A DNA stretch of 64,000 bases from Candidatus Dojkabacteria bacterium (GTDB taxonomy: Bacteria; Patescibacteriota; Dojkabacteria; B142; WJKM01): positions 9,977-73,976 of the forward strand of contig JAYRWD010000026.1 in the NCBI GenBank assembly GCA_041918255.1. Direction: 5' to 3'. Both the position numbers and the translations under genes were made by a program. Below are positions 28,515 through 45,623 of the stretch, piece after piece. The notes under the pieces are model-generated. The model did not search any database, was not told where the DNA came from, and was given only the letters and a program-made list of their open reading frames with translations. Numbering within the stretch: the stretch's first letter is position 1; each line of letters begins with the position of its first letter.

Positions 28515-30632
28515 GTGATTATTATTCGATCCGTTATGTTTCAAAAGAGATTGATAAAGAAAATATTAAAGGTGTGTTGTGTGCTTTTCGTATTAACAGG
28601 GTTTTTTATTGGCATGGGTCCTGTCCGCGGGGAAGGTCAAACAAGGGAATTCTGTGAGAAGGTTAGCGTGGTTGTTAGTACGGATAATGTGGATGAGGAG
28701 CAGAGTGTTATTGAAGTAGATTCAAATTTCATTCCAATTAAGCCTTATAAATTTAAGATACAAGTTAATCCGGATGCGTTTGTTGGGTGGAGTGATGCTG
28801 ATATGGAGATACGGATCGAGACAGATGCTATTTCAAGCTGGAATGACCCAGAACCAAATGATCCAAGTTTTATAATTAATACATATACAGCGAATGCTTT
28901 GTATGCAGAATTTAGTAGCAGATCAATTGAGGAGCTGGGAATGGGGCCATTTGCGTATATGTTAATGGAAAAGGGAACTAAAAAGGAATTTAAAATGAAA
29001 CGCAATAATAATGAAGAATTAGCCGATTGTGGCAAGATTATTGACGTCGTTCCATCTGATTATGTATCTAATAAGTGTAGTGATAGAAATCTTACCGCAG
29101 GTGCTTGGAAAGTTCCAGGATATTTCCAATGTAACTATAATAATGAAGGTTGGGATGTAAACACGTTTTCCACCTGTGATGCACAACAAGTTCGGCCCAC
29201 TGACGAGCTGTGTAGCGCATTGTTTAATGATAAGCTTACCGACGATAATACAGTATTCTGTTCAAAGTGTAAGACTGAAGCGGATTTACCAGGGTATGGT
29301 ACTACTCATCTTTATGGGGAATTGTGCGAACTTGGAGAGGGAAAGTGCGGGTATGATACTGGTTTAGTATGCCGAACTGTTGGATTGCAGAATTTATGTG
29401 TAAATAGTGATAAGCTTTGGGTTCGTGAAGATTGTATAGTTGGGGCAGATGAGTGTGTCGAAAAGGACAATGGGGGTTACACGGTCAAGTGTATTCAAAC
29501 GCAGCCATATACTTCTGTACCTGCTAATCCTTTGCAGCTCGCACAGATTATTGATCCGCCAGCAAGTAATAAATATTATGGAGTTGGGGTTATAGGTTCT
29601 ATGGGAGAATGTAAGTCACTGCAATATTTGGACAAAGTAGGCTGTGACACAGATCCCTACTGCCAAGGAAAAGTTGACGATGGTAATCCAGCAATAGTTG
29701 CATATAACTATGAGCTTGGAAAATGTATAAACAAAACTTATTGTGACTTTGGTTATTCATACGAAGAGTTTCCTAACGAAGAAGATGAAAACGTTCGGGG
29801 GACAGATGGACAAATTAGCATTGGATTAACCAAGGAAACCAAAGATCGGGGATATTCTGGGATTAGTGCAACATTATCTGGATTAGCCGGAAAAGAGATA
29901 AGCAAAGAGGCGGTGGGAAGTTTGAAATTTGAAAATATCCCATATGGTGAGGGTATCAAATATACTCTTAAGGTTAGTATCATTCCCGCTTCGCGGGGCG
30001 CAGGGATGATGGGCGGTTTACTTATTCATTCAAGTGCGCAAGCACCAGTAGTGTGTACCAAAACTAAGAGCATTGAGATGTTAGAAAAATTTAAAATAAT
30101 TGATCTTGAAGTCACAATAGACAAGGATGGAAAATGTACGTTAACGGTTGCCGAAGATTCTAGTTCAATTTCTCCCTCTTCATATGTTTCCAATATTGGC
30201 ATTGAAGGATGTGGTGACAGCCTAAGTTGCATCAATTGTTTAATTAGAAAAGACGCAACAAACTTCGAAAAGTTTACAAGTCTTGAAGAAGCCGTTGCCG
30301 CCAATGCAGGAGGCGAGGATAAAATTTATAGGACCAATAATATTTATACAGCGCTAGGGTGTATCGATCCCAGTGATCAGGGGATTATAGTAAGATTGTT
30401 ACAGATTTCTCTAGGTATAGTAGGAGGAATTACGGGGGCGCGTTTCGGACAGGCGGCTTACAAGTTTGGCAAAGGCGAGCCTGAGTCTACCAAGGAAGCA
30501 TGGGAAATAATCTGGTCCGCAATTTTGAGCCTTCTACTTATTGCATTCTCGGTAGTAGGTTTTCGATTTATCGGAATTAATCTATTCAAATTACTTACTC
30601 CCGGAACAGTAGAGATACCTTCTCCAAAGTAA
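28515..30632 (+). CDS. Large secreted Cys-rich protein that ends in a pilin-like (TrbC/VirB2-topology) paired-TM hairpin.
   Basis: A 705-aa product. An N-terminal signal anchor is followed by about 560 aa with more than 40 Cys, and the C-terminus is IVRLLQISLGIVGGITGARFGQAAY-[loop]-WEIIWSAILSLLLIAFSVVGFRFIGINLF. This has the same topology as the five genes that follow. Confidence 0.6.
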   Translation: MIIIRSVMFQKRLIKKILKVCCVLFVLTGFFIGMGPVRGEGQTREFCEKVSVVVSTDNVDEEQSVIEVDSNFIPIKPYKFKIQVNPDAFVGWSDADMEIRIETDAISSWNDPEPNDPSFIINTYTANALYAEFSSRSIEELGMGPFAYMLMEKGTKKEFKMKRNNNEELADCGKIIDVVPSDYVSNKCSDRNLTAGAWKVPGYFQCNYNNEGWDVNTFSTCDAQQVRPTDELCSALFNDKLTDDNTVFCSKCKTEADLPGYGTTHLYGELCELGEGKCGYDTGLVCRTVGLQNLCVNSDKLWVREDCIVGADECVEKDNGGYTVKCIQTQPYTSVPANPLQLAQIIDPPASNKYYGVGVIGSMGECKSLQYLDKVGCDTDPYCQGKVDDGNPAIVAYNYELGKCINKTYCDFGYSYEEFPNEEDENVRGTDGQISIGLTKETKDRGYSGISATLSGLAGKEISKEAVGSLKFENIPYGEGIKYTLKVSIIPASRGAGMMGGLLIHSSAQAPVVCTKTKSIEMLEKFKIIDLEVTIDKDGKCTLTVAEDSSSISPSSYVSNIGIEGCGDSLSCINCLIRKDATNFEKFTSLEEAVAANAGGEDKIYRTNNIYTALGCIDPSDQGIIVRLLQISLGIVGGITGARFGQAAYKFGKGEPESTKEAWEIIWSAILSLLLIAFSVVGFRFIGINLFKLLTPGTVEIPSPK

Positions 30633-30688
30633 CTGAGCAAAAGAAGGTAAAACAAGGTAAAATATTCATATAAAATATTAGAACTAGA

Positions 30689-31063
30689 GTGATGAGAGTG
30701 GTGCGGACCATAAAATCAAAACTTCTTGCGACAGCTGTTTTCGTCAGCACTTTTTCAATATTTGCTTTGAGGGTCGTACACGCCGTAGCTATTCCAGACC
30801 CAATAGGAAAAGATTTTCTAACCATCTTCAACGATGTCACCGGTCTCATTAAACCAATAACTGTACTTACCTTCCTAGCGACCTTTTTTTATGGTGGATA
30901 TACATGGATGACAGCAGGGGATAGCGAAGATGCGGTAAAAAAGGCCGGGAAAATTCTCACCACGTCAATTATCGGACTGATAATTATATTCCTAGCCCCA
31001 TCCTTAGCCGAACTTGTTGCAAGTTTGCTTGGAGTGAGGCAAATTATTGAATTTCCTAATTAA
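30689..31063 (+). CDS. TrbC/VirB2-like pilin-topology protein (signal peptide plus two TM helices), minimal version.
   Basis: A 124-aa product. It has a roughly 34-aa signal peptide ending AVA, helix 1 ITVLTFLATFFYGGYTWM, a short charged loop, and helix 2 ILTTSIIGLIIIFLAPSLAELVASLL. Confidence 0.6.
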   Translation: MMRVVRTIKSKLLATAVFVSTFSIFALRVVHAVAIPDPIGKDFLTIFNDVTGLIKPITVLTFLATFFYGGYTWMTAGDSEDAVKKAGKILTTSIIGLIIIFLAPSLAELVASLLGVRQIIEFPN

Positions 31064-31065
31064 CG

Positions 31066-31896
31066 ATGATGGATACAAATTTTCTTCGTAGTGCTAAAAC
31101 AATCTTAATTATTTTATGTGTTACTGGAACTGTCTACTTTGTTTCGCAGACCGGATATGTAAAGGCGGAGGGGGAAATATTAGATATCAAATGTGCTAGG
31201 GAAAGGATCCTAAATCCCACCGGTTGTTATGCAAGTGGCGAGAAAGATAGTCCAACAAGCAGTTTTAGTTTTTCGGGTACCGAGGAGAAAGGAGAGTTGG
31301 GGGGTTGTAAGGATCAAGAAAACAGCGAAAAATTTATGTGCGAATTAAATAAATTTTGCACTGGCTCTGGAGAGGAAAAAGATCAAACCTTTGGAAAAGA
31401 CGGATTAAATTACTCGGGGACCACTTTGCGATTCACTCAGGCCAACCTACCCAAGCTGATTAGAATGGCGCTCACAATCATTTTTTCCCTATTAGGCATC
31501 ACTGCACTCTTTATGGCTATTTACGGAATAATGAAATGGTTCTATGCCGTTCGCGGAGGTGGGGACGTTTCAAAGATGACAACATACTTTATGAATGGAA
31601 TATGGGGAGTATTTTTCGCGGCAGGAAGCATAGGCTTTACATATATGTTGTTTTGGGTTTTCGGGTATCGGGATAATATATTTGATTTCGGTGCTGTCTT
31701 TGATGAATTATATAGCGTAGATTGCGAAGCGGTTGTTAGCGAAAACGGAGATCCGGTAGACCCTACGCAAGTGCAAGCATTATGTGATAAATATAACCTT
31801 TCGTGTATGTATGTTCCGGGCAAATGTGTAGAGAGAGTGGCAGATTTCGATAGCTGTACTTCTAAGCCAAAAACAAGCAATATGAGGGTTACATAA
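31066..31896 (+). CDS. Pilin-topology paralog with a Cys-containing N-ectodomain and a Cys-rich C-tail.
   Basis: A 276-aa product with a signal peptide. Its TM hairpin is MALTIIFSLLGITALFMAIYGI / IWGVFFAAGSIGFTYMLFWVF. A Cys-rich tail follows. Confidence 0.55.
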   Translation: MMDTNFLRSAKTILIILCVTGTVYFVSQTGYVKAEGEILDIKCARERILNPTGCYASGEKDSPTSSFSFSGTEEKGELGGCKDQENSEKFMCELNKFCTGSGEEKDQTFGKDGLNYSGTTLRFTQANLPKLIRMALTIIFSLLGITALFMAIYGIMKWFYAVRGGGDVSKMTTYFMNGIWGVFFAAGSIGFTYMLFWVFGYRDNIFDFGAVFDELYSVDCEAVVSENGDPVDPTQVQALCDKYNLSCMYVPGKCVERVADFDSCTSKPKTSNMRVT

Positions 31897-31935
31897 GATA
31901 AGCCTATCCAGAACGTCTATAAATGTTACGCCAAT

Positions 31936-32688
31936 ATGGGTATGAAAAATAAAATATATTTATCATTCGCAACGCTCCTCACACTGTTTTCCTTTGCTAC
32001 GAGGGTAGCAGCTCAGGTTAATATTGATGTCCCAGACGGAAAAACCAAAATTGAGATAGATTATTTCAAACCATCGGCCTTTACAGATTTGATGAAGTTT
32101 GGGGCTTTAGGATTTGTGGGATATATCGCCATTTTCCTTGTTGGCTTTATGTTTATATATATCACCGTCCAAATAGCCATTTCCGCGGGCAAAATTATTC
32201 AAAGCCAAGGAGATTCTGGCAAACTCGAGGAAGGAGTTTCCGAAATCCAAAAATTTATGCGAGGGGTTTTGATAGCAATGTTATTTTTATTGGCATTTGT
32301 GGCGGTTGGAATCTTTATGGGAAGCGGAAATATTATGAAGTGGCCTTCTAAACTCGGACAATGTGGCGGGGGCGGGGTTTTGTTTAACGCAGAATATGAC
32401 GCCTCCCTGAAGAATGAAAAGATCTATGAGAAGGAAACGCAAGTACTATGTTGTAGAAATTTTGAAAGTTTGGACTTTGGGGACGAAAATACCGTCTTGG
32501 TTTCTCCAGTAGGGGGTATTAGAGGATTTAGCAAGGATGGACCTTCAGCAGGAAATCCATTCGCTATAGTCGTGGGAACCGAAACGGACGGAGGCTGGAT
32601 GTTTATCCTACCATCTGCAACAGGAGAATCTAGAGATTTACAATCGACCCAATCTGACCAAGAGAAATATGTTTGTTCGATTTATTAA
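31936..32688 (+). CDS. Pilin-topology paralog
   Basis: A 250-aa product with a signal peptide (…ATRVAAQ). Its TM hairpin is FGALGFVGYIAIFLVGFMFIYITV / VLIAMLFLLAFVAVGIFMG. A C-tail with CGGGG and CC follows. Confidence 0.55.
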   Translation: MGMKNKIYLSFATLLTLFSFATRVAAQVNIDVPDGKTKIEIDYFKPSAFTDLMKFGALGFVGYIAIFLVGFMFIYITVQIAISAGKIIQSQGDSGKLEEGVSEIQKFMRGVLIAMLFLLAFVAVGIFMGSGNIMKWPSKLGQCGGGGVLFNAEYDASLKNEKIYEKETQVLCCRNFESLDFGDENTVLVSPVGGIRGFSKDGPSAGNPFAIVVGTETDGGWMFILPSATGESRDLQSTQSDQEKYVCSIY

Positions 32689-32721
32689 GATTGCAACCTG
32701 AGGAGTTTCTTTGTATTATAT

Positions 32722-33387
32722 TTGAGAAAGCTAAAAATAATTAATATTATTTTAAAAAATATGAAGCAATTTAAAACATTGGCAAAAGTTGGTTTGGGTT
32801 TAGCTCTATCTTTGGCATCAACATATACAGTTGTAGCCGCTCAGTGTGGAGGTTGGTTGCCAGAATTCCTACAGGGGTTTGTGTGCGAGGATCCAGTAAA
32901 CAATTTAACAAACAGGGTGAAAGTGTTTTTCGTACTAGCTTTCGGAGCAGTAATACTAATGGGAGTTGTGTATACAATTTCGGCTGCGTTGAAGTTCATG
33001 CGAAGTAAGGGTGAAAGCGGAGAGATTGAAAATAGCCAAAAAGCAGTCACGGCGATTTTCTACGGAGTTGCTTCGCTTTTTGTTGGAGTGATTGGTATGG
33101 TTGTGGTCACACTATTCTTTTCTCCCACGGTTATTTTCCCTCAGCAAATTTGTATACAAGCCCCGGATAGCTACGGCTGTTTTGCCTGTCGTAATCCTAA
33201 GAAGGGTTCAAATGTTTCTTTCGTAGATATTTGTAATGCATGTAACGATGTGTCCGAGGCACCACTAAGTGATATTAGTGGAAATGTGACGTGTGCTGAT
33301 GATGTTCCCGCGAATATCTCCGATGATGATATAGTTCTAAAGCTTGATGAGGTAAAAACGGTTGGAACGAAAAAAGTTGGGGTCTAG
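32722..33387 (+). CDS. Pilin-topology paralog
   Basis: A 221-aa product with a signal peptide (…VVAAQ) followed by CGGW...C. Its TM hairpin is VFFVLAFGAVILMGVVYTI / AIFYGVASLFVGVIGMVVVTLFF. A Cys-rich tail follows. Confidence 0.55.
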   Translation: MRKLKIINIILKNMKQFKTLAKVGLGLALSLASTYTVVAAQCGGWLPEFLQGFVCEDPVNNLTNRVKVFFVLAFGAVILMGVVYTISAALKFMRSKGESGEIENSQKAVTAIFYGVASLFVGVIGMVVVTLFFSPTVIFPQQICIQAPDSYGCFACRNPKKGSNVSFVDICNACNDVSEAPLSDISGNVTCADDVPANISDDDIVLKLDEVKTVGTKKVGV

Positions 33388-33586
33388 ATTGGAACAGGAT
33401 TATTCAAATCCGCTTTCTTCAAACTGAATAAAAATTGACTTTATGCGATACCCGAAAAAGGCAACAAATGTGTGTCACACTGAGTTCATCGAGGTGCGAC
33501 ACTATCATATTTTTACCCCTCGACGTGCTTCTGCCAGAGGCAGACAGACAGGGTGACATAATAAATGTAGTTTCGTATAAAGTCTA

Positions 33587-34540
33587 ATGAAGTATAAATT
33601 GCTTTCTTTGTTTGCCATTGCTCTGACTGTTAGCACGGTTTTTTTCACCACGCCAGGAATCGCTCTGGTTAGTGCGCAAAGTCAAGAGGAAGTAAATCCG
33701 CTTTTCGATCTCAGTTCAACCGATCCAATCTATATAAATCTCAATTACGACTGTACAAATATTAAGTGGTCGGAAGGTGCGATAGGGATTTATAGAAAAG
33801 TCTATAAGTCCGGGGACAAATATTATGAAGCCAATCCTCGAATAAACGAAATCCAGCAATATCTAAATGGCAAGCCCTATGCCGAGACCTACTTTCTTTT
33901 TGAAGGCGAAACGGGATTGAGTTTAGAAGAGAGTTCTATTAACAAAAATGATTTCAATGCCACGCCATTCAACGAAATAAAGAGGATTGCTCCCTCGCCT
34001 TTTATTATTCCTAGTGATAATCCAGAGCCTATTTTGAAAGAATACGTTGGCATGCCCCTGTGTGATGGTGCCTATTCCTTTAGTGGAAACGATTTTCTTG
34101 CTCCAAATCAAAAGATGAGAGCAAGTCTCGATAATCAGAACGAAAGTTTCGGAGAGCCAAAAAGTTTTGTCCCAGCAAATTTCGTACCCCCTGTATTGCA
34201 GCAAGCGGAAAATTACTTCGTGGAGATAATATACATTTTTTGGAGTATTATTGGACTAGCAGCAGTTGGGCAGTTATTTGTCATAGGTTTGAAAATCCTG
34301 ACATCAAGCTTTAGCCCGGAGCAAAAAGGAGCTACGTTACGCTCGGTAGCATTATGGGTGGTCGGACTGGCATTGGCCATAGTGGCTATTCCACTTTTGC
34401 AATTTATTTTTAGAATTTTGGACATACAAGACACTAGATGCTTCAAATATACTGAGAATAATGAATTAGTTTACGATCTGACCGTTCCGGGTTTCACGTT
34501 CTTCTTTAATGATACATGTACGTCCGAGGAGAGCTTGTAG
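33587..34540 (+). CDS. Pilin-topology paralog with a roughly 170-aa ectodomain.
   Basis: A 317-aa product with a signal peptide (…LVSAQSQ). Its C-terminal hairpin is FVEIIYIFWSIIGLAAVGQLFVIGL / LRSVALWVVGLALAIVAIPLLQFIF. Confidence 0.55.
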   Translation: MKYKLLSLFAIALTVSTVFFTTPGIALVSAQSQEEVNPLFDLSSTDPIYINLNYDCTNIKWSEGAIGIYRKVYKSGDKYYEANPRINEIQQYLNGKPYAETYFLFEGETGLSLEESSINKNDFNATPFNEIKRIAPSPFIIPSDNPEPILKEYVGMPLCDGAYSFSGNDFLAPNQKMRASLDNQNESFGEPKSFVPANFVPPVLQQAENYFVEIIYIFWSIIGLAAVGQLFVIGLKILTSSFSPEQKGATLRSVALWVVGLALAIVAIPLLQFIFRILDIQDTRCFKYTENNELVYDLTVPGFTFFFNDTCTSEESL

Positions 34541-34608
34541 CGAACCTGTCCTTGCCAGAACTTCCCTAAATCCGTGATAATGTGTTTCACTAAATAACCC
34601 AAATTATT

Positions 34609-35769
34609 ATGTTCAAATTCATACATACAGCCGATCTTCACCTTGGGGCGAAGGCAGGATGGCTAGGTACTCGAGCAACAAGCCATAGAAAATTATTATT
34701 AGATACCTTTGCCCAAATTTGTGACGAGACGCGAAATAGGGGGGCAAACGCATTAGTTATAGCAGGGGATCTTTTTGATACCCCATATCCAAGTACTAAT
34801 ACCATAAATTATGTGCAATCTCGTTTAGAGGCATTAGCAAGGGGGGGCACAATGGTTTTAATTGTGGCAGGCAATCACGATCGCTATATTGATTCTTCGG
34901 TATATTCCAAACTGAAATTCTCAAATCCTCTCATCCATGTTTTCTCTCCAGAAAAAGTTGAGGTAATTGAGTCAACGAATTTTGCGGTTAGGTTTTTTTC
35001 GCAGAGTATAGCTCAAAGATTCTCAACATCCTCAACCCTTGGGCGACTCATAGATGCTCGCAAGAATGGTAGGATGGACGGCGGAGGTTTTACAGATATT
35101 GCGATTGTTCACGGATCAGTAGAATTAGGATCGAATACGACCAACCACGGGATATCAAAGGAGGAAATTACAAATTCTGGTTTCGCATATATAGCACTTG
35201 GCGATTGGCACGGATTATTGGAAGTATCAAACAAAGCAACAAAAGCTTGGTATCCAGGCTCACCTCAACCATTGGCTTTTGATCAGAAAATGTTTGGTCA
35301 TGTTCTGGAAATATCGGTCGAGCCCGGTGTAAATGAAAGAGTAGAAGTTATGCCAATTAAGATTTCTGAGTTATTTACACAGGAAGTTACATTTGATTGT
35401 TCAAAACAGGATAACCACCAAGGAGGCGGACAATCTTTATATGAACGTATAGACAGGACTATTACCGGACTATCAAATAAGAATTTGTTACTTGAAATGA
35501 AATTAAGTGGCATCATAAAGCCAGAAATGCCAATTAATTTAGGGGAGATATTGGAGGCCGATACGGATAAATTTTATTTATTACGAATCATAAATCTAAC
35601 GAAGATAGGTTTAACACAGGAAGAGATAGAAGCTATACCCGAGACTACGGTTTCTGGAAGACTAATCAGAATTGCTAAACACAGACTTGAGATCGAAAAA
35701 GACGAGAATGTACGCAAAATTATTGAGCAAGCCTTAGTGGAGGGATTACAAAAATTAAGCGAATTGTAG
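34609..35769 (+). CDS. SbcD/Mre11-family metallophosphoesterase, YhaO(SbcF)-like
   Basis: Calcineurin-like motifs IHTADLHLG, AGDLFD and AGNHDR. It is 386 aa and lies directly upstream of the SMC-like ATPase. Confidence 0.75.
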   Translation: MFKFIHTADLHLGAKAGWLGTRATSHRKLLLDTFAQICDETRNRGANALVIAGDLFDTPYPSTNTINYVQSRLEALARGGTMVLIVAGNHDRYIDSSVYSKLKFSNPLIHVFSPEKVEVIESTNFAVRFFSQSIAQRFSTSSTLGRLIDARKNGRMDGGGFTDIAIVHGSVELGSNTTNHGISKEEITNSGFAYIALGDWHGLLEVSNKATKAWYPGSPQPLAFDQKMFGHVLEISVEPGVNERVEVMPIKISELFTQEVTFDCSKQDNHQGGGQSLYERIDRTITGLSNKNLLLEMKLSGIIKPEMPINLGEILEADTDKFYLLRIINLTKIGLTQEEIEAIPETTVSGRLIRIAKHRLEIEKDENVRKIIEQALVEGLQKLSEL

Positions 35770-35855
35770 AGGATTTTTAGCGCGCCCGAAAACGCAAGCA
35801 TAACGTAACGATTATAATTTTTTATACTTTTTTGCAACACGTTGAAAAATAAATA

Positions 35856-37967
35856 ATGATCATAAAAAGTCTTCGAATAAACAACTTCAGACTCTTTCAG
35901 GATAGACAACTTTTTTTCTCTAGTGGTCTGAATATTGTGATTGGACCAAATGAAGCCGGAAAATCCACGCTTGTTTCTGCTCTGAAACACGCTCTGTATA
36001 CGGATCCTGTATCTAAATCAAAAATGATAGCAGCGGATATATCTGGATGGGACGAAGGGGATTCGCGTAAGGCGGAAATTGAAATAGAATTTGAAGCCGA
36101 AGGGATAAATTACGTATTTGAAAAGAACTTTCTGGGTAAAGAGACATTCTTAAAAGCTAAGAATGAAAATAGATGGCAATATAAAGGTAAAGAAGCGCTT
36201 GAAAAAATTGTTGAAATTTATGGCATACCCAATGTTGAAATGTTTGAAACTTCGGCCTCACTAAACCATGAAGATCTAGAAAAAGTACGAAAAAGTACAA
36301 CATTTGTAGCAGCGCTTCAGAATGCGTCTACCCAAGGAAGTAGGGATGGAAGAATCCAAGACATTTTGAGGCAGATCGATTTAGAGATTCAAAATCTTCG
36401 ACGTGGTATGGTTGCGCTGGCAAAAAATCCCGGGTTAATCCGAAGCGCTATGGATGATTTAAAGCGGTTAGAAATTGAAAAGGAGGAGAAAGGTGTAAGG
36501 TGGAAAGAACAGCAGGGTTTAATAGAAAAATACAAACAACTTGTAACAAGGAAGGATGAGCTTGAAGTAAAAGAAAAAGAGCTAGCCCGGATCATAGATG
36601 TAAGCGAAACCTATTACCGGAAGCAAAAGGAATATAACGAGATCAATACACAAAGGACTGAATTGGAGGAGAGAATCGAGAAAATCGAAGAGATTGAAGG
36701 AGAGTATAAAAAAATAGCGAATGAGTTGTTAGCGTTTGAATCGGAGAAACGTCAGAGCTACCTTGAAACTCAAAAGATATTAACAGAATATGAAAAAGAA
36801 ATTGATAGCTTAAATAATTCCGTTGCGGTTCTAAAGGGAAAGAAAAGGGAAACCATACTTAAAAAAGCAAAGGAGCAGCAGCTTTTTTTGAAAGGATTGG
36901 GTATTACTCTCGGGCTTGTCGGAATAGTTGCATCAGTGAAATATTGGGAATTCATATTTTTAGGATTGGGAGGAGTAGTTATGTTTCTACTTGCGGTCAA
37001 AATTCAAAAAATTTACGAAAAGTTTTTGCGTGTAAATGAGGATAGTCAGATAGAAGGTCTGAGGGAGCAGATTTTGCAGGAGAATACTAAGATAGAAATG
37101 GCACTATCGAAAATAGATATGGTTACGATTCAAGAATTGGATCACACAATACACGAATATGAAAAAAAATTGGTTAGGAAAGAAGAAAAGGGAAATGCTC
37201 TGATAAGCCTACTTGGAAATGAGAATCTTGAAAAACTGAAACAAAAAAAGAGTATCTTGGCGCAAGAGGCAGAGGGCATAAGGGCGGTATACCTAACGGA
37301 GGAAATCAAAATGGGTGTTTTAGACACTAGAGCCTTATCAGTTGATAGGGGTAATTATGTACAGGTGAGAAGAGAGCTTGAAGATGTGAGGGCGGATATA
37401 GCAAGACTTGAAGGAAGATTGGGAGTGGAGCAAATCTCGTTAGAAGAAATATCGGAAACAGAAGATCGGTATGATTTAGCAAAAGAGAAGTATAAAAACA
37501 GCAAAAATAAATTGGCAGTACTTACGTTGCTAAGCGATATGCTAGGCGAAGCTACGCAGGACACAACGGTGTTGGTGGCTCATGCGGTACGGGAAATCGT
37601 CGAAAAATATATAAAAGTAATTACAGAAGGAAAATATACTAGGGCAAGGTTGGATCGAGAATTAGAATTAGAAGTTTATTCTCCAGAAAAAAATGACTGG
37701 ATAAATCCCATGAAGTATCTGTCGTCGGGGGCGTGCGATCAGATTTTTTTCTTGGTACGGTATGGTTATTTCAAGCTTCTGTCTAGCGGGAAGCGGCCCT
37801 TTTTGGTATTAGATGATGCGTTTTTAGCGTTTGATAGTATTCGGATGAAGAGTGCTATGGAGCTTCTCAAAGTTTTAGCTGAGGAAAATCAAATAATTTA
37901 TTTAACCCATCGAAAGAATCTAGCTAAATACGGAGATACGCTGTACCTGTGCGAATGGTATAGATAA
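35856..37967 (+). CDS. SbcC/Rad50-like SMC-family ATPase with a central transmembrane hairpin, YhaN(SbcE)-like
   Basis: N-terminal Walker A IGPNEAGKST. There are long coiled coils. A mid-protein hydrophobic pair, GITLGLVGIVASVKYWEFIFLGLGGVVMFLLAV, takes the place of a CxxC zinc hook. The C-terminus carries the signature LSSGACDQ, Walker B LVLDDAFLAFD and the H-loop YLTHR. Confidence 0.7.
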   Translation: MIIKSLRINNFRLFQDRQLFFSSGLNIVIGPNEAGKSTLVSALKHALYTDPVSKSKMIAADISGWDEGDSRKAEIEIEFEAEGINYVFEKNFLGKETFLKAKNENRWQYKGKEALEKIVEIYGIPNVEMFETSASLNHEDLEKVRKSTTFVAALQNASTQGSRDGRIQDILRQIDLEIQNLRRGMVALAKNPGLIRSAMDDLKRLEIEKEEKGVRWKEQQGLIEKYKQLVTRKDELEVKEKELARIIDVSETYYRKQKEYNEINTQRTELEERIEKIEEIEGEYKKIANELLAFESEKRQSYLETQKILTEYEKEIDSLNNSVAVLKGKKRETILKKAKEQQLFLKGLGITLGLVGIVASVKYWEFIFLGLGGVVMFLLAVKIQKIYEKFLRVNEDSQIEGLREQILQENTKIEMALSKIDMVTIQELDHTIHEYEKKLVRKEEKGNALISLLGNENLEKLKQKKSILAQEAEGIRAVYLTEEIKMGVLDTRALSVDRGNYVQVRRELEDVRADIARLEGRLGVEQISLEEISETEDRYDLAKEKYKNSKNKLAVLTLLSDMLGEATQDTTVLVAHAVREIVEKYIKVITEGKYTRARLDRELELEVYSPEKNDWINPMKYLSSGACDQIFFLVRYGYFKLLSSGKRPFLVLDDAFLAFDSIRMKSAMELLKVLAEENQIIYLTHRKNLAKYGDTLYLCEWYR

Positions 37968-38137
37968 TTGTACGTGCACTTATGTTAGTAGGCTTTAGTC
38001 TTTTGTATATAAGCACAGAACAAGAAAATTATTTTGAGACCCAACAAACCTATGAGTAGATCAAAGCTCTTGATTGGAGGATTGCGGAATATATAGGCTG
38101 CTTTTGGTATACTGGAAGCGAATAATATAAGACTTAA

Positions 38138-39883
38138 TTGCCCGTGATTTTGAAAAAGATCAAGTATCAAAGGTTTACGATTTCAATTCTCCTTTTGAGT
38201 ATTTTTTTTGCGATTTCGACCATTCCAACTAATGCTCGCACCATTTCTGAAATTGAGTCGGAAATAAAACAGAAACAACAAGAACTTACTGAAGTTAATA
38301 CGACAATTGCCGAACTAGAAGAGAATATTATTAAGCAAAAAGCTGAGATGGAAAATGTTGTCGGAAGGCGTAATACCCTGAGGGCAGAATTAGCATTGAA
38401 CGCAAACCAAAAAAGTCTGATAGAGGAAGAGCTGCGCGACTTAAACAAGAACGAGATCTTAACAAAATTAGAGCAAGAAAAGAGAATTCTGACGCAGGAC
38501 CGATTAGTTTCTGAGGCATATGTGACATGGAGACAAATGAATACTTTTCGGATTTTGCTTCAGACCAATTCGGAAGATATTGTCAAAATTTCGACATATC
38601 AGAACTCCGTTTCTGAGCGCGAACAGAAAAATATTGAGCAACTCGAAACAGAGTTAGAAGCAATACAAAAAGAGTTGAACGAAAATGAAATTAAAAAGGC
38701 ACAATATCAGGCCGAAATTGATAAAATTGACGCGCAAGTCAAGGTAACAGAAAGATTATTGGCAGAGCTAGATTCAAAAATTTTAGCTAATCAAAACGAC
38801 GTTGCGAATTATCGAGGTAGATTAGGATCTATTCAATCCGCGATCGACGAATTGACGGCGGAGCAGAAAAGAATATTAGAGGCCGAATCTGTATTTTTGG
38901 GTAAGGTCAGCAATGGGGGCACAAAGACTATTAAACAAGGACAAATCTATTTTCAGGGTATTGGAAGGGAGGCCTATCAGGGACATGGTGTAGGCATGTC
39001 TCAGTTCGGAGCTTTGGGTGCGGCACTGGCCGGATGGGATGCGGAGAAAATAGTTGAATTTTATTATCCTGGTGCGGAGGTTGAGACGTATGGAAAAGGC
39101 AAAAAAATAAGTGTAGAAGGATATGGAAGTATGGATATTGAAGATTATGTAGCGGGAGCTGGTGAGGTACCCGACCATTCTTGTGAAGAATTAGATTTAA
39201 AATTTGACTCAAAGAATGTGTGGCAATGTTGGCCAGAAGAAGCCATAAAAGCTCAGGCAATAGCTTTCCGAACATACGGGATTCATAGCACAATCAGCGG
39301 AGGTACCATATGTACTTCGGCTAAATGTCAGGTATATAAAGGTGGGACGAATAAAAAATGGGCGGCCGAGGCCACAGAGGGTAGAGTTATCATGTATGAT
39401 AATGAACCAATAGCAGCTTTTTATAGCTCTGACAATCATAATGGATGGGGGAATGGAAATAATGATACTGTGTGGAGCAGTATGTCCGGTGTAGGAGAAC
39501 CAAAAAAATATTTGCGTGCAGTAAATGACAAAAAGATTGCTTTTCATTATACCTATACGGATTGGGGATGGAGAACAAACGGATATTCAATTTCAGATGT
39601 TGATAAAATGTTAACTTGGAGTGTGAATTCAGAAAAATCTACGAGTGGTTACAAAGAATTTTTAAAAACAATAAAAACAAAAGTAGGGACTCTAAAGGGC
39701 ATGGATTTTGAGAGGGATCCCTCTGGAAGGGTGAAAAGAGTCAAATTGATTGGGGAAAAGGGAGGTGAGTATATAGCTGGATGGCTTTTCAAATCTGCTT
39801 GGAATATATGGGTAGGGAATGAAATGCCCAGTGGGGAAAAGGATTTCATTTATAGCCTGACATATTACATGCGAGTTGGATAA
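38138..39883 (+). CDS. Secreted coiled-coil protein with a C-terminal SpoIID/LytB-like peptidoglycan hydrolase domain.
   Basis: A signal peptide, then about 230 aa of heptad-rich coiled coil, then the SpoIID-type motifs GHGVGMSQFGALGAA and AFYSSDNHNGWGN. Confidence 0.6.
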   Translation: MPVILKKIKYQRFTISILLLSIFFAISTIPTNARTISEIESEIKQKQQELTEVNTTIAELEENIIKQKAEMENVVGRRNTLRAELALNANQKSLIEEELRDLNKNEILTKLEQEKRILTQDRLVSEAYVTWRQMNTFRILLQTNSEDIVKISTYQNSVSEREQKNIEQLETELEAIQKELNENEIKKAQYQAEIDKIDAQVKVTERLLAELDSKILANQNDVANYRGRLGSIQSAIDELTAEQKRILEAESVFLGKVSNGGTKTIKQGQIYFQGIGREAYQGHGVGMSQFGALGAALAGWDAEKIVEFYYPGAEVETYGKGKKISVEGYGSMDIEDYVAGAGEVPDHSCEELDLKFDSKNVWQCWPEEAIKAQAIAFRTYGIHSTISGGTICTSAKCQVYKGGTNKKWAAEATEGRVIMYDNEPIAAFYSSDNHNGWGNGNNDTVWSSMSGVGEPKKYLRAVNDKKIAFHYTYTDWGWRTNGYSISDVDKMLTWSVNSEKSTSGYKEFLKTIKTKVGTLKGMDFERDPSGRVKRVKLIGEKGGEYIAGWLFKSAWNIWVGNEMPSGEKDFIYSLTYYMRVG

Positions 39884-39950
39884 TTGAAGAAGCACGACTT
39901 CGAAGTCACTTGCCAAGTTTGTAAAAAGATAGTAATTTAGGTATATAACA

Positions 39951-42155
39951 ATGCAAATTGATAGAAATAGAATAAAAACTCAGTATTTCGTTGGGGCTTC
40001 TCGTAAGACTCAGTGGTCAAGCGTGTATATATTCTCACCCCATATACCCGCCGTTTATGAAAAGATGGGCGATCTGTTTGCCATTATTACGTTATCGAGC
40101 CCCCCTTCATTTGATTCTAATACCGCAGGAAATCTCTTGATAGACGCACTGCAAGAGGCATATTTTGATGGCCCAAATGAGAATCCATTTGAAGGAATTG
40201 ATTATGCAGTGAAGTCGGCAAAGAAACGTTTAGAGGATCTAATTGAGAGTGATGAAATAATTTCGCAAACTGGAATCGAACTTAGTTTACTATTGGTAGT
40301 TATTCATGAAGAAAAGGCTTATTTAGCCCGCATCGGCGAAGGAGCAATTTTTGGATTCAGAGAGGGCGAAATGGTTGAATTCACTACTAGTTTGAAAGAT
40401 CCCGATGGCAAGGGACATATGAAAACTGCAAGTCTAAGGGTTAGTCCTGGAGATCGATTTGCGATTCTGACTAAAGAAATTCAGCAAAATATTTCAAAAG
40501 ATGAAATTGAAGCAAGTCTCGTGAAGTTTAAGCTAGAGAATATTGAAAATAAAAAGTTTTCAGATGAGGCCTTGAGCGCGATTTTACTTATTGAGGTCGA
40601 GAAAGAGGAGAGGGCAGATATACTAGAGATCAAAGAGTCAATTCAGAATGACAGTGTCAAAGATGAAGATTTCAAAGGGATGTATAGAGAATTTGAAACA
40701 CGAACTTTGAAGGAAAGGGGGGATGAAGAAGCCGAATATAAATTTTTGTCCGCATCAACTTATCATTCTACACCAATATTTATGAGGCTCAGAAGGCAAG
40801 TCAAAGTAGTAATGAATTCTAGATCGTTGGCTAAGGTTATTATATATGGGCGTAATGTCCTCGGGGTACTATTCGGACTATTGGGATCTTTACATCGAAC
40901 CATAAAGTCAAAAGTACTAAAGATACCTCCTAAAGAAATGCTGTATATAAATGATTTGAACAAAGGTGGTAATAAAAGACCAGCAATATTTTTCTTTGTT
41001 TTATCAATTTTATTGATTTACTTTATTATTACAGGAGTTTCGAATTCAAGAGAACGCGCAAAGCTTGCATTTGAGGCTGAGCAAACGATCGTAACATCTG
41101 AAGCTGAACTGACTGAGCTAGAAAATAAAGTAGCCTCTATCATTCTTACCTACGGTAACGAAATAGATAGGGATGCAGCTTTTCGAAAAGTAGACGAGAT
41201 TAAATTAAAATTAGAAGCACTGAAGGTAGAAGAAGTATCTGAGAAACAAAATGCAATTCTAGATAGATTGGAAGAAGTGAATCGTAAGCTTCGTAGGATT
41301 ATTCAGGTCAGAGAAGTTAAAGTGGTCAAAGATTTTGCAGTAATAGAGGGTAGCCAAATAGCTGATATTGATATCGGAGCAGAACAAATTTTTGTGGCCG
41401 ACGGTGGTGATGGCAAAATTTTAGCATTTGATAGGGCAGGTGGGAGTATGAAACAATTAGCCACCGGCTTAAAAGGTCTAATCTCTATAGCATATTCAAA
41501 TCTTGGGCATTTAGCATTTATTGACGGTGATCCTCAAAGAGTTTTAGGTCTTATCAGACTGTCTGATAATATATTGACTCGGGTACCAGGTATCGATGCA
41601 ATTAGGCTCGGCAGGGTAAATGATATCGATGCTTACAAAGTTGGGGAGAACGATAATCGCATTTATGCTGTTCGACCAGAGTCTTCACAAGTTATTCAAA
41701 TGCGTCAATCGGCAGGAGAGTATGTTTTGCCCGAAATTAGACTTGAGAATAAAGATTTGGGGAAAATTTCAGATCTTGAGGTAAGTGACGGGAGGATCTA
41801 CATTCTGTCTCAGGACAAAGGAATTAAGGCTTTTTTTGGAAACGGGGAGGTAGCTTTGAAGCTGTACGGTCTTATGCAACCAGAATTATGGAATTCGGCA
41901 AATAATATATATGTGGATTCAAAATATATATATTTAAGCAATGATTCTATGAAGAGGATTGCGGTTTTCTCAAAATTTAGACCATCGGATGAAGGAGCGG
42001 TGGATTTTATCGCACAGTATGATTTAACCGGATTGCCTCAGAGCGGTAAACTCGGCGAATTGGTTGCCAGTCAACAACAGAGAACTATATATGTCGTACT
42101 CGGAAGTAAGATAGTGAAACTTGATATGTCAGCTATGGAGGAATTCACATACTAG
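39951..42155 (+). CDS. Hypothetical 734-aa single-pass membrane protein: N-terminal cytoplasmic domain, coiled coil, and a C-terminal repeat (beta-propeller-like) domain.
   Basis: A TM helix (PAIFFFVLSILLIYFIITGV) lies mid-protein. The N-domain is faintly PP2C-like (ARIGEGAIFGF), but the DGHGG motif is absent. The C-terminal 300 aa are rich in repeated G/D-containing strands. Confidence 0.4.
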   Translation: MQIDRNRIKTQYFVGASRKTQWSSVYIFSPHIPAVYEKMGDLFAIITLSSPPSFDSNTAGNLLIDALQEAYFDGPNENPFEGIDYAVKSAKKRLEDLIESDEIISQTGIELSLLLVVIHEEKAYLARIGEGAIFGFREGEMVEFTTSLKDPDGKGHMKTASLRVSPGDRFAILTKEIQQNISKDEIEASLVKFKLENIENKKFSDEALSAILLIEVEKEERADILEIKESIQNDSVKDEDFKGMYREFETRTLKERGDEEAEYKFLSASTYHSTPIFMRLRRQVKVVMNSRSLAKVIIYGRNVLGVLFGLLGSLHRTIKSKVLKIPPKEMLYINDLNKGGNKRPAIFFFVLSILLIYFIITGVSNSRERAKLAFEAEQTIVTSEAELTELENKVASIILTYGNEIDRDAAFRKVDEIKLKLEALKVEEVSEKQNAILDRLEEVNRKLRRIIQVREVKVVKDFAVIEGSQIADIDIGAEQIFVADGGDGKILAFDRAGGSMKQLATGLKGLISIAYSNLGHLAFIDGDPQRVLGLIRLSDNILTRVPGIDAIRLGRVNDIDAYKVGENDNRIYAVRPESSQVIQMRQSAGEYVLPEIRLENKDLGKISDLEVSDGRIYILSQDKGIKAFFGNGEVALKLYGLMQPELWNSANNIYVDSKYIYLSNDSMKRIAVFSKFRPSDEGAVDFIAQYDLTGLPQSGKLGELVASQQQRTIYVVLGSKIVKLDMSAMEEFTY

Positions 42156-42179
42156 AAATGATTAAGCGAATTACAGCCA

Positions 42180-42635
42180 ATGGAAAGTAAGCAATACGCA
42201 AAAAATAAAGCCGCGTTTCATGATTATAGAATTATTGAGGAATTTGAAGTAGGTCTTGTTTTACAGGGATGGGAGGTTAAATCTATCCGGGTAGGGGCTG
42301 TCAGTCTTAAAGAAAGTTACATTGCCCCGGTAGGAAAAGAATTATTGATTTATGGAATGAATATTGCAAAGTGGAAGTATACACTTAGGGTAGGGGAACA
42401 GATGGAATTGCGACCGCGCAAATTACTAGTAAATAGAAAGGAAATAGAGCATATTGTCTTTGAGCAAAAAAGAAATGGTGTAACAATCATCCCGCTATCA
42501 ATATACGATCGACGTGGACATATAAAATTGAAAATAGCACTGGGGAAGGGATTACGTAAATATGATAAAAGGGAAGTCGAAAAATCCCGAGAAATCATGA
42601 AAGGGAGTAGGGAAAAACAGGCGGAAAGATGGTAG
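42180..42635 (+). CDS. smpB: SsrA-binding protein SmpB
   Basis: NKAAFHDYRIIEEFEVGLVLQGWEVKSIR, with a basic C-terminal tail. It is 151 aa. Confidence 0.9.
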   Translation: MESKQYAKNKAAFHDYRIIEEFEVGLVLQGWEVKSIRVGAVSLKESYIAPVGKELLIYGMNIAKWKYTLRVGEQMELRPRKLLVNRKEIEHIVFEQKRNGVTIIPLSIYDRRGHIKLKIALGKGLRKYDKREVEKSREIMKGSREKQAERW

Positions 42636-42682
42636 GCACAAGCTATAGCTATGATATAATTTATATCAATTAAGTACAACAA

Positions 42683-43072
42683 GTGTTTAGAAAAAAAATT
42701 GATGAGCAAACAGGTGTGCCATCTCCTGAAATAGCAGGAGGAGCGGTCTCTACTGGTGTCCCTCGAGGTAGTGAGGTACTCACAAACAAAGAGATTCAAT
42801 CCGGAAGTGGGTATAATGAGAAGAAAACAGATACCCAAAAAGAGACTAAGATTCCTCAGTCGCCAACTCAAACGCAGATTAAGACGCAAGGTCCGGCGCA
42901 GACTACGCAAACAGTAGTGCCGAAAGTATGGGGTTACAAAATTTCTCCCTCGTTAGTTTCGAATCTAGGTAAGGTAAGGAGGGGGAAAAGTTCTGCAGAT
43001 CCTAAAACAGGAATTGGTTGCTTGTATATGCTTATCGATAGACTTTTTAGAATGCAGACAGCCTCGGCCTAG
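42683..43072 (+). CDS. Doubtful small ORF encoding a low-complexity T/Q/K-rich product.
   Basis: The 129-aa product is largely compositionally biased (TQKETKIPQSPTQTQIKTQGPAQTTQT). It has no convincing SD and could be non-coding. Confidence 0.2.
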   Translation: MFRKKIDEQTGVPSPEIAGGAVSTGVPRGSEVLTNKEIQSGSGYNEKKTDTQKETKIPQSPTQTQIKTQGPAQTTQTVVPKVWGYKISPSLVSNLGKVRRGKSSADPKTGIGCLYMLIDRLFRMQTASA

Positions 43073-43151
43073 CCTAGAATTTCACCCATTCCCAATACTC
43101 AAAAATATTCATCTAGTGTATTATTAGTATGACCTTTAGTACCAATTTATA

Positions 43152-45623
43152 ATGATTCAAGCTGTCCGCATATTAGCACAAATGGATTTTTTCTCCTTAG
43201 TTATGGACCCTGCGTCATTCGTAGATGAAGCAAGCAATGACCCTTCGTTTCTGATAATGGTTTGCCTTATGGCAATATTGGGTCTTGTAATTTTGATTCT
43301 AGCGTATAAGCTATTTATGAAGGGAGTGATGCATGCTTCTATGGAAAAAAAGTCATTAAGCTCAGTTCTCTTTGAAGTTAGACTTCCGCATACGAATGAG
43401 GTCGAGATACAATCAGCCGATCAAATGCTAACGGGGTTTCTTGGCATTGAAAGAGAACTGAAGGGGCTACAAAAATGGTTTGGTTCGAAATATTATATTA
43501 GTTTTGAAATTGTAGCGTTGCCTGAGACTATAAGATTTTTTGTAAATGTCCCAAAGAAATTAGCGACACTTGTAGAAAAACAAATAAATGGTACTTATCC
43601 TGAGGGTGAAGTAATAAGAACGGATGAATATAATATATTTGGACCTGGGCAGAAGGTAGAATTCTGTTCATTGAAGTTAGCTGAGGATCCGTATAAGCCC
43701 ATCCGGACATATGAAGAGCTTTCGCAAGATGGTTTAAGCAGCATTACCTCCGTTATGAATAAAATGGGTCCTGGTGATGCTATGGCGTTACAGATTGTTA
43801 TTACTCCCTCATCAGGAGAGTGGCGCAAAGATGGTCGAAAATACGTAAATAAAATACGAGAGAATAATTCTGATCCGGAAAAATCAAAGATAGAGGTAGA
43901 AGACGAAATACTTGCTGCAATTGAAAAGAAGGCAGAAAAGCCTGGATTTGAATCAGTTGTGAGGATTGTAAGTGTTTCTACGTTAGGAGAAATAGCTAAA
44001 TCAAATTTGGATAACATGGTTTACGCGTTTGATCAGTTTGCTAATCAAAATGGAAATAGGTTTAAAAAAGTTTCATACAAGAAAAGAAAGGAACAAAGGG
44101 AATTCATGAAGTCCTTTTTGTACAGATTCCCCTCGAAAGCGATGATTTTAAACTCCTCTGAATTAGCTACTATTTTTCACTATCCAAATAGCAAAATTAC
44201 TACTCCGCACATACATTGGCTTACCTCGAAACGTGCTCCAGCAAGTGGAGAAGTCTTATCTCATTTCGAAAATGCAGGGGTATACCTAGGAGTGAATGAA
44301 TATAGGGGCACGAAAAGAAAGATATTCATGCGCTATGACGATAGGCGACGACATTTTTATTATGTTGGTAAAACAGGTTCTGGTAAATCTGTAATGTTGC
44401 AGCATATGGCCTATCAGGATATTTTAAACGGACAGGGATTAGCATTCCTGGATCCTCACGGGGACGCCGTTGAATGGCTTATGGATCGAATACCGGCCGA
44501 ACGTGTCGAGGACATTATTTATTTCAACCCTGCGGATACGGATCGTCCAATAGGTATGAATATCATGGAATGGTATACCGAACATGATAAACACATTATT
44601 GTGAATGGTTTCTTGGGTCTTCTTAATAAATTATTTGATCCTTACAATCAAGGTATTACTGGACCACGTTTCGAGCAGGCCGTAAGGAATGCGATGTTGA
44701 CTGTTATGGCAAAAAAAGGCACTAGCTTGGCTGAAGTGATGACACTTTTACAAAATGACAAGATAGCAGAGAAATACTTTCCATATTTAAACGATGATAT
44801 TGTAAAACGCTATTGGACAGAACAAATAGCCCATACCCAGGAATTTCACAAATCGGAAATTTTAGGATATATAACCTCTAAGTTTGACAGATTTATCACA
44901 AATAAATTGATGCGAAATATTATTGCTCAAAGCAAATCTGGCTTTGATTTCCGTACAGTTATGGATGAAGGCAAGGTTTTATTAATTAACTTATCCAAGG
45001 GATTAATCGGGGAAGAAAACTCACAATTCCTAGGGCTATTATTGATACCCAAAATGTTGCAAGCAGCGATGAGTAGGGCGAATATTGAAGCTGGATCAAG
45101 GCGGGATTTTTATCTATATGTAGACGAGTTCCAGAATTTTGCGACGCCTGATTTTGCTCAAATTCTTTCGGAGGCTCGAAAATACAGGCTTAACCTAATT
45201 GTCGCTAACCAATACATCGCCCAAATGACGGATGAGATCCGTGATGCTGTTTTCGGTAATGCAGGGTCTATAGGTAGTTTCAAAGTGGGAGTGAATGATG
45301 CGCAGTACTTGGCGAATGAATTTGAGCCAGTATTTAATCAAAACGACTTAATCAATTTGGAAAATTTGAATATGTATATCAAGTTACTTGTAAAAGGTGA
45401 ATATCCTCCTCCATTTTCGTTAAAATTAGATACGGATTTGGTCTTCAAAACACCACCGAATAAAGAAATTGGTCAGCTTGTTAGGGAACTATCGCGACTG
45501 AAGTATGGGAAAGACGCAAAGCTGGTCGATGCCGAGATAAAGGCAAGAGAACAAGAAGATGGACCAGGCAATATTGTATCACAACCACCGCCTCCGGCGT
45601 ATAAGCCACCGCTGAGTAGCTAA
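43152..45623 (+). CDS. VirD4/TraG/TraD-family type IV coupling-protein-like P-loop ATPase
   Basis: An N-terminal TM helix. Walker A YYVGKTGSGKS is followed by LDPHGD, which resembles the T4CP DPKGE motif. Walker B is YVDEFQNFA, with GNAGSIGSFKVG beyond it. The product is 823 aa. Confidence 0.55.
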   Translation: MIQAVRILAQMDFFSLVMDPASFVDEASNDPSFLIMVCLMAILGLVILILAYKLFMKGVMHASMEKKSLSSVLFEVRLPHTNEVEIQSADQMLTGFLGIERELKGLQKWFGSKYYISFEIVALPETIRFFVNVPKKLATLVEKQINGTYPEGEVIRTDEYNIFGPGQKVEFCSLKLAEDPYKPIRTYEELSQDGLSSITSVMNKMGPGDAMALQIVITPSSGEWRKDGRKYVNKIRENNSDPEKSKIEVEDEILAAIEKKAEKPGFESVVRIVSVSTLGEIAKSNLDNMVYAFDQFANQNGNRFKKVSYKKRKEQREFMKSFLYRFPSKAMILNSSELATIFHYPNSKITTPHIHWLTSKRAPASGEVLSHFENAGVYLGVNEYRGTKRKIFMRYDDRRRHFYYVGKTGSGKSVMLQHMAYQDILNGQGLAFLDPHGDAVEWLMDRIPAERVEDIIYFNPADTDRPIGMNIMEWYTEHDKHIIVNGFLGLLNKLFDPYNQGITGPRFEQAVRNAMLTVMAKKGTSLAEVMTLLQNDKIAEKYFPYLNDDIVKRYWTEQIAHTQEFHKSEILGYITSKFDRFITNKLMRNIIAQSKSGFDFRTVMDEGKVLLINLSKGLIGEENSQFLGLLLIPKMLQAAMSRANIEAGSRRDFYLYVDEFQNFATPDFAQILSEARKYRLNLIVANQYIAQMTDEIRDAVFGNAGSIGSFKVGVNDAQYLANEFEPVFNQNDLINLENLNMYIKLLVKGEYPPPFSLKLDTDLVFKTPPNKEIGQLVRELSRLKYGKDAKLVDAEIKAREQEDGPGNIVSQPPPPAYKPPLSS

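Follow-up and report, generated by a model that had tools for sequence, protein, structure and literature searches.

A predicted pseudophosphatase/NHL-propeller membrane protein with a conserved place in a pilin and ATPase gene block of Dojkabacteria

Patescibacteria depend on other cells, and a 64,000-nucleotide (nt) stretch of a Candidatus Dojkabacteria genome (assembly GCA_041918255.1, contig JAYRWD010000026.1, positions 9,977 to 73,976; hereafter the window) raises the question of what a large membrane protein does in the midst of genes for pilin-like proteins, a SpoIID/LytB-domain protein and a VirD4-like ATPase. Examining this protein (the target), we found a predicted combination of a catalytically dead PP2C-fold domain, a single transmembrane (TM) helix, a helical stalk and an NHL beta-propeller outside the membrane, encoded by a gene that keeps its position among the pilin-like and ATPase genes in distant relatives. 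The reading we prefer, with a probability of roughly 40%, is that the target is a non-catalytic bitopic connector or transducer subunit of a pilin/ATPase envelope module.

The target gene is real and no chance open reading frame (ORF): the strand antisense to it is stop-rich, and its start codon is backed by the family alignment, which opens at M1. When 1.84 billion cluster representatives were searched exhaustively with HMMER, 355 relatives were returned at E<=1e-3, 164 at E<=1e-10 and 76 at E<=1e-30, counted as clusters at 50% identity, and most of the matches are 750-850 amino acids (aa) long and align with both ends of the query. All members bearing a source name are annotated 'hypothetical protein', and nothing in Pfam, NCBIfam, PHROGs or PADLOC matches the target above threshold, in agreement with an initial annotation, made from the letters alone, that could place it in no known family. 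A sequence search of PDB with the single protein found no match, and neither did a word-index homology search with the protein or a 41-sequence alignment as query, the family apparently not being in that index. The plasmid and phage collections searched by tblastn likewise hold no match, and the gene is therefore not on a known mobile element.

Where an organism is given for a member, it is Candidatus Dojkabacteria, an uncultivated group once called WS6; this applies across the whole range of similarity, from P0004 at 36% identity to P0150 at E 4e-12. The gene is also present in a GTDB locus from a Dojkabacteria metagenome-assembled genome (MAG; L014) and in two MAGs labelled 'Saccharibacteria' (L076 and L078). 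A homologue in the cultivated saccharibacterium S. epibionticum is unsupported, as its smpB has no such neighbour and its structure-based annotation holds no PP2C or NHL protein. Scanning outward from SmpB yielded mostly Proteobacteria, with a target homologue upstream of smpB in all three loci of the candidate phyla radiation (CPR) and in none of the 77 other loci. Divergence of the alignments stood in the way of a pattern-based locus search in GTDB genomes, and with 4 aligned sequences the 45 pattern matches included no relative.

The fold of the N-terminal part is the first clue to function. An AlphaFold2 (AF2) model built on the 41-sequence alignment (A1) reached a mean predicted local distance difference test score (pLDDT) of 84.7, with 485 residues at 90 or above; from the single sequence the pLDDT was only 38. 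In this model residues 8-216 form an alpha/beta sandwich, of the alpha-beta-beta-alpha type that defines PP2C phosphatases, whose best Foldseek match is the phosphatase domain of PstP (PDB 2cm1; E 3.6e-10, TM-score 0.64 normalised to the target, 16% identity), followed by tPphA, SpoIIE (5mqh) and the type VI secretion system regulator PppA (6jkv). A profile of 23 N-domains searched against PDB matched tPphA at E 2e-5, with weaker matches to Stp1, PstP and a SpoIIE-family protein, and a global hhalign comparison gave 96.4% probability. On the strength of the predicted structure and these profiles, the likeness to PP2C/PPM phosphatases (Pfam PF13672, PF00481 and PF07228) is genuine homology at the level of the fold. 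The Pfam PP2C_2 model stays below its cut-off of 24 bits, with 17.3 bits for the whole protein and 19.8 bits for the N-domain alone, and a Pfam PP2C match at E<=1 is found in just 4 of the 23 N-domains. The initial annotation, which had described an N-terminal cytoplasmic domain of about 330 aa with faint PP2C-like features, was thus right about the fold but too generous about its extent, since the folded part covers just residues 8-216 and the remainder of some 340 cytoplasmic residues is a disordered acidic linker and an amphipathic helix.

Of the five metal-binding aspartates of tPphA, D18 corresponds to S23 of the target (S or A across 124 members), D34 to L48 (L or I), D193 to K175 (S or P), D231 to A207 (variable) and D119 to E130 (E or D in 92 of the 124), with the tPphA and PstP sequences for these local alignments being hand-entered ones, of which tPphA 44-217 match the PDB hit exactly (27.2 bits, same alignment) and residues 1-43 are unverified. 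An alignment-free count in the N-terminal regions of the same members found the motifs DGxGG, DG[MH]GG, GDS[RK], [SCT]DG and G..DN in 0-6 of 124 each; the target has none of them, and the catalytic DGHGG motif is absent, as had been noted from the letters. Since the family lacks four of these five aspartates and has almost none of the signature motifs, we predict that the domain is a pseudophosphatase. Other residues of the domain are well kept, including the structural glycines of the fold (G40, G60, G108 and G129), an invariant W22 beside the place of the lost D18, an L148-K-D150-P-x-G153 motif at the site of the substrate-binding flap of PP2Cs, and S161 and D168. By analogy with PP2C structures, these conserved residues suggest a remodelled cleft that may serve for binding.

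Beyond this domain the protein crosses the membrane once. Among 118 full-length relatives, residues 344-364 are the sole segment that is consistently TM-like, which bears out the single-pass protein of 734 codons first described, and a conserved N-W-R-P motif precedes this helix. A second TM helix at 293-314 was considered and rejected, as the segment is amphipathic and its hydrophobicity is not conserved in the family; most relatives have their second-ranking hydrophobic stretch in a buried strand of the PP2C-like domain. The charge flanking the TM helix in the 118 members is net +4.3 on the N-side and +0.3 on the C-side, with the N-side higher in 93%. Because the N-side is the more positive and no signal peptide was found, an N-in/C-out topology is well supported as a prediction.

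The family keeps its regions to different degrees. Mean pairwise identity is highest in the PP2C-like domain (33.5%), followed by the propeller (28.7%), the TM helix (26%), and the stalk and cytoplasmic linker (17% each). The linker region as a whole (217-342) ranges from 123 to 274 aa in length. The stalk, which corresponds to the coiled coil first noticed after the TM helix and is helical and amphipathic over residues 366-447, holds its length at 74-93 aa despite its low identity; AF2 places helices at 343-398, 404-422 and 427-447, and the hydrophobic periodicity of the stalk helices is 3.5-3.6. A fixed length with low identity is, as judged from the alignment, the behaviour of a predicted spacer or ruler.

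On top of the stalk, the extracytoplasmic repeats that had been suspected of beta-propeller periodicity fold in the AF2 model into a six-bladed propeller most similar to NHL domains, with matches to Brat and PknD. The family profile searched against PDB retrieved the PknD-derived Pizza proteins (E 2.6e-21) and PknD itself (E 6.5e-12), and Pfam NHL (PF01436) matches 17 of 41 family members with a best E of 4e-7, the target itself having no match at E<=0.01.

The second clue is gene order. We compared 13 independent related loci, checked by tblastn, and found that the order pilin-like array, (SbcCD), SpoIID-like gene, target, SmpB, small protein and ATPase is kept down to 22% target identity. 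The SpoIID-like gene stands upstream of the target in nine loci (by tblastn in eight and by Pfam in L091), with a pilin array further upstream in L002, L003, L007 and L091, the first three being homologous to that of the window. Downstream, smpB follows the target directly in 12 of the 13 related loci (11 confirmed and 1 probable), sometimes overlapping the target stop codon, and the ATPase gene lies two to three genes downstream in all ten loci that extend that far. The ATPase is 40-72% identical across related loci as against 22-35% for the target, a level that looks, from these sequence comparisons, more like that of a housekeeping protein than of a mobile-element coupling protein. Thus, the synteny with the pilin array and ATPase that the initial annotation had proposed to check holds at 22-35% target identity.

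What varies in these loci lies inside the block or beyond it. The sbcCD pair is a variable insert, present in the window, L002, L003, L005 and L078 and not found at this place in L007 and L091. Five loci (L003, L005, L007, L078 and L091) have a gene for a membrane protein of about 209 aa (206-236 aa) between the SpoIID-like gene and the target, and three (L005, L008 and L091) have one there for a 75-aa DUF5657-type protein; both are missing from the window, where the gap is 67 nt and tblastn found no match. The outer flanks are IF-2/SPOUT in the window, ClpB in L007 and a UvrD-like gene in L091, and because they differ, the stretch from pilin to ATPase behaves as a unit. In L091, five separate PF18895 pilin genes, one of them found by tblastn, come directly before the SpoIID-like gene with no housekeeping gene between. 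So far, the module of pilin, SpoIID-like protein, target and ATPase looks Dojkabacteria-specific.

From the architecture and the gene order together, we infer a coupling role. The PP2C-fold domain, having lost its metal site, would act as a protein-binding platform, with the membrane-anchored ATPase or a phospho-protein as likely partners. The TM helix and the stalk of fixed length would bring the propeller out into or through the wall, where it may bind a conserved extracytoplasmic partner such as a pilin or pilus, a hydrolase or a wall component. In this way the target would couple the outer apparatus to the cytoplasmic motor, resembling GspL/PilN of type II secretion and type IV pili or VirB10 of the diderm type IV secretion system (T4SS). 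A bolder form of this proposal is a VirB4-less surface filament or transport machine of Dojkabacteria, made of the pilin array, a SpoIID-type hydrolase and the DUF8128/VirD4-like ATPase, with the target as a core transenvelope subunit in which the dead phosphatase docks the motor and the stalked propeller holds or gates the pilus; we regard it as unlikely.

Several observations weigh against a connector role. The locus is no classical T4SS cluster, as sbcCD and smpB are interleaved with the other genes and no VirB4, VirB6, VirB3 or VirB8 domain was found in about 45 scanned ORFs of the window (nearly all of its non-nested ORFs of at least 100 aa), so that, measured against a T4SS, parts of the set are missing. 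Neither in sequence nor in fold does the target resemble known subunits of the T4SS (VirB8/PrgL, VirB10, VirB6, VirB3, TrsD and others), the type II secretion system (T2SS) or the type IV pilus (T4P), and the PstP to which its N-domain is closest is a cell-wall and division regulator. Since smpB (12 of 13) and often sbcCD sit within the block, the order could reflect lineage-wide synteny near oriC and not function; housekeeping genes share conserved order, and therefore synteny alone cannot prove function. In one locus, L009 (21-22% identity), the order is target, sbcD, sbcC, rpsO, ftsQ and ftsA, without smpB or the ATPase gene.

The layout of the protein would also suit a stand-alone transmembrane sensor or transducer, whose propeller would sense something outside the cell, for instance material of a host surface or pieces of wall, and signal to the pseudo-PP2C domain by way of the stalk and the TM helix; that domain would then sequester or release a phospho-protein or regulator, and the target would regulate the apparatus or other targets without being built into it. 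An external cue is assumed to be bound by the NHL propeller of PknD, and the architecture of the target is a hybrid of PstP (PP2C, TM, ectodomain) and PknD (kinase, TM, NHL propeller). A long disordered cytoplasmic linker of the kind seen here is typical of signalling proteins, and pseudo-PP2C domains act as binding modules in TAB1 and EsrG1, discussed below. Against a sensor, none of 14 loci has a Hanks kinase, an FHA protein or a transcription factor as a conserved neighbour of the target. The propeller, moreover, is not hypervariable, being little less conserved than the N-domain, whereas a host-recognition sensor in an arms race should be more variable; its conservation pattern therefore argues for a conserved ligand over an arms-race receptor. 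We consider a stand-alone sensor possible but doubtful.

A cell-envelope growth or division factor is a further alternative, in which the target acts with the SpoIID-like lytic enzyme in a role like that of PstP or of bitopic divisome proteins and its proximity to the pilin and ATPase genes is incidental, a matter of synteny close to the origin. This would account for the conserved SpoIID/LytB-domain gene upstream, the DivIC and XerC-like recombinase genes just past the module, the ftsQ and ftsA genes three and four genes downstream of the target in the outlying L009, the PstP match and the location of the locus about 17 kb from dnaA. Incidental proximity, however, fits poorly with pilin array and ATPase genes that keep their positions while the outer flanks differ in L007, L091 and the window, or with the five pilin genes that abut the SpoIID-like gene in L091. 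PASTA domains are peptidoglycan sensors, and we know of no NHL propeller that is. On balance, a division factor seems improbable. A confident assignment to a housekeeping family, which the initial annotation had named as its refutation, did not emerge from the structural search either, as the best match, PstP, is one of fold only with the catalytic residues gone.

Far less probable than any of these is a membrane-bound Ser/Thr phosphatase that is active through an unorthodox catalytic centre; this reading has the PP2C fold and the Glu/Asp at the D119 position in its favour, but the enzyme would have to work without the other four ligands and the signature motifs, in a family that the Pfam PP2C models score under their gathering thresholds.

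The features of the target and of its surroundings are collected in Table 1.

Table 1. Features of the target gene and its neighbourhood (positions are counted from the first letter of the window; residues are those of the target protein)
Feature	Residues	Position	Strand	Basis and remarks
Target gene (pseudo-PP2C / TM / stalk / NHL-propeller protein, predicted)		39951..42155	+	734 aa plus stop; ATG start; AF2 model; 355 cluster representatives
PP2C-fold domain, predicted cytoplasmic and catalytically dead	8-216	39972..40598	+	Foldseek, profile search, hhalign
Acidic linker	217-291	40599..40823	+	AF2 pLDDT <50; low confidence; length variable
Amphipathic juxtamembrane helix	292-322	40824..40916	+	AF2; hydropathy 1.6; TM character not conserved
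Single TM helix	344-364	40980..41042	+	Kyte-Doolittle 2.7; family median 2.64
Extracytoplasmic helical stalk, three amphipathic helices	365-449	41043..41297	+	AF2
Six-bladed NHL beta-propeller, predicted outside the membrane	450-734	41298..42152	+	AF2; family profile against PDB
Array of six secreted membrane proteins, upstream of the target		28515..34540	+	Two with pilin matches; others pilin-like by architecture alone
Cys-rich secreted 705-aa protein heading the array, two C-terminal hydrophobic segments		28515-30632	+	No family match
VirB2-like pilin, confident		30689-31063	+	PF18895 E 2e-11
Weak pilin-like protein		33587-34540	+	PF18895 E 0.009
sbcD and sbcC		34609..37967	+	Metallophos and SMC_N matches
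581-aa SpoIID/LytB-domain protein, N-terminal TM segment and long coiled coil		38138..39883	+	TIGR02669 E 4e-33; PF08486
smpB, directly downstream of the target		42180..42635	+	PF01668 E 1e-42
129-aa low-complexity protein between smpB and the ATPase gene		42683..43072	+	tblastn matches in L001, L002, L005, L014, L078
823-aa VirD4/TraD-like P-loop ATPase (type IV coupling protein (T4CP)/HerA-type), N-terminal membrane anchor		43152..45623	+	PF02534, PF12696, PF10412; TIGR03743 E 9e-13
Secreted protein, three SLH domains and acidic Gly/Asp-rich repeats, right after the ATPase		45902-47347	+	
dnaN		20435-21562		
dnaA		21770-23164		
tRNA-Ile, anticodon TAT (UAU)		47348-47421	-	
2345-aa ORF		54672-61709	+	Beta-helix/NosD and CarboxypepD_reg domains

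The window has a G+C content of 39% and is an origin-proximal chromosome segment, holding dnaA and dnaN together with genes for LexA, DnaJ, IF-2, ArgRS, SerRS and RNase P and four tRNA genes. Downstream of dnaA, at about 5-21 kb, lies the block from the pilin-like array to the ATPase. From 28515 to 47347 all genes are on the + strand, and those of the block are separated by short intergenic gaps or overlap; promoter and terminator scans gave results at chance level. Between the confident and the weak pilin genes of the array are three genes for secreted proteins with TM segments, and the array scores below the cut-off of NCBIfam NF045849. The 705-aa protein at its head has no match in Pfam, NCBIfam, PHROGs or PADLOC, and a relationship of its C-terminus to the adjacent pilin was rejected, the similarity not being detectable (E 0.29). 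It has a homologue in the same position in L002 and L003.

The 581-aa SpoIID/LytB-domain protein is the candidate wall-remodelling enzyme of the module. Downstream, smpB is probably co-transcribed with the target; SmpB is the partner of tmRNA, and the window holds no tmRNA gene. Homologues of the 823-aa ATPase bear DUF8128. The SLH-domain protein that follows suggests an S-layer-bearing monoderm envelope; tblastn found no counterpart at its position in any related locus. Adjoining its gene on the other strand is the tRNA-Ile gene, and a UAU anticodon is an uncommon bacterial way to read AUA, compared with lysidine-modified CAU. Further along the window, the 2345-aa ORF probably encodes a giant surface protein and has a weak, sub-threshold receiver-domain match at residues 5-95.

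The target gene is conserved in all 14 related loci examined, and the protein can be put forward as a specific candidate for a transenvelope part or regulator so far missing from the patescibacterial surface machinery. What is new is the way the domains are combined, that the catalytic centre has been lost and that the gene is constantly tied, in Dojkabacteria, to a block of pilin and T4CP genes without VirB4; the folds themselves are known. As predicted, the family clearly exemplifies, in bacteria, the fusion of a PP2C pseudophosphatase to an NHL propeller outside the cell. We found no published description of such an architecture in the literature, and the main text and supplements of two studies of patescibacterial T4SS-like loci (PMC12102498 and PMC10633639) mention neither a PP2C nor an NHL protein, and no propeller other than gyrase, which one supplement lists. 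A VirB4-less machine with the target as a core subunit, if real, would show a new way of building a T4SS-related apparatus in a monoderm. Should the gene order be no more than conserved synteny, the family would still be a well-defined new domain architecture that merits a Pfam entry, at modest interest.

Among known systems, the closest in layout is PstP of M. tuberculosis (Rv0018c; PDB 2cm1, 1txo), which shares with the target a gene location near oriC and the order of its parts, with a PP2C fold at the N-terminus in the cytoplasm, then a linker, one TM helix and a C-terminal part outside the membrane. PstP retains its Mn2+-binding aspartates and is an active enzyme, in contrast to the target, whose aspartates are replaced and whose identity to PstP is just 16%; nor does PstP have a helical stalk or, to our knowledge, an NHL propeller as its ectodomain. 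The operon partners of PstP are FHA proteins, RodA, PbpA and PknA/B, types that are absent around the target. The propeller finds its counterpart in PknD (Rv0931c, M. tuberculosis; PDB 1rwi), a receptor kinase with an NHL propeller ectodomain, which differs from the target in its cytoplasmic Hanks kinase, its lack of a long helical stalk and its unrelated genomic context.

The loss of catalytic residues recalls human TAB1, a PP2C-type pseudophosphatase that acts as a binding module. A 'pseudophosphatase-like' domain is also described in the actinobacterial (host-side) signalling protein EsrG1 (PMC13622651). Both share with the target a PP2C-like fold without catalytic metal ligands, which has a binding or scaffolding role in those proteins, but both are soluble and neither has a shown sequence relationship to it; W22, the L-K-D-P-x-G motif (148-153) and S161 are marks of the target family's own.

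The preferred reading, a connector subunit, draws on bitopic proteins of other envelope machines. In GspL/PilM-PilN (T2SS/T4P) and VirB10/VirB8 (T4SS), an inactive enzyme-like cytoplasmic domain clamping the ATPase is combined with one TM helix, a coiled coil and a globular outer domain, and the genes are encoded together with those of pilins and the motor ATPase. The target shares this logic of layout. By the features that mark T4SS subunits, its gene is co-located with pilin and coupling-protein genes and is not encoded with VirB4 in the window.

The nearest genomic parallels are the T4SS-like loci of Patescibacteria themselves. VirB4-centred loci near dnaA, with VirB2 arrays of 2-11 genes, have been described in this group (Quinonero-Coronel et al., PMC12102498), in which VirD4-like T4CP genes lie mostly far from virB4, glycosidases other than VirB1 have been raised as possible wall openers, and most parts of the T4SS-like machinery have still to be identified (PMC12102498). 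In the only patescibacterial species amenable to genetics, both T4SS-like genes and pilin arrays proved essential (Wang et al. 2023, PMC10633639). Compared with these loci, including SEML1_0006-0019 of S. epibionticum (PMC10633639), the target block likewise has a VirB2-like array near dnaA on a CPR chromosome, no relaxase and a candidate wall hydrolase other than VirB1. It differs from the described VirB4-centred loci in having no VirB4 in the window and in that a T4CP-like ATPase is invariably part of the block.

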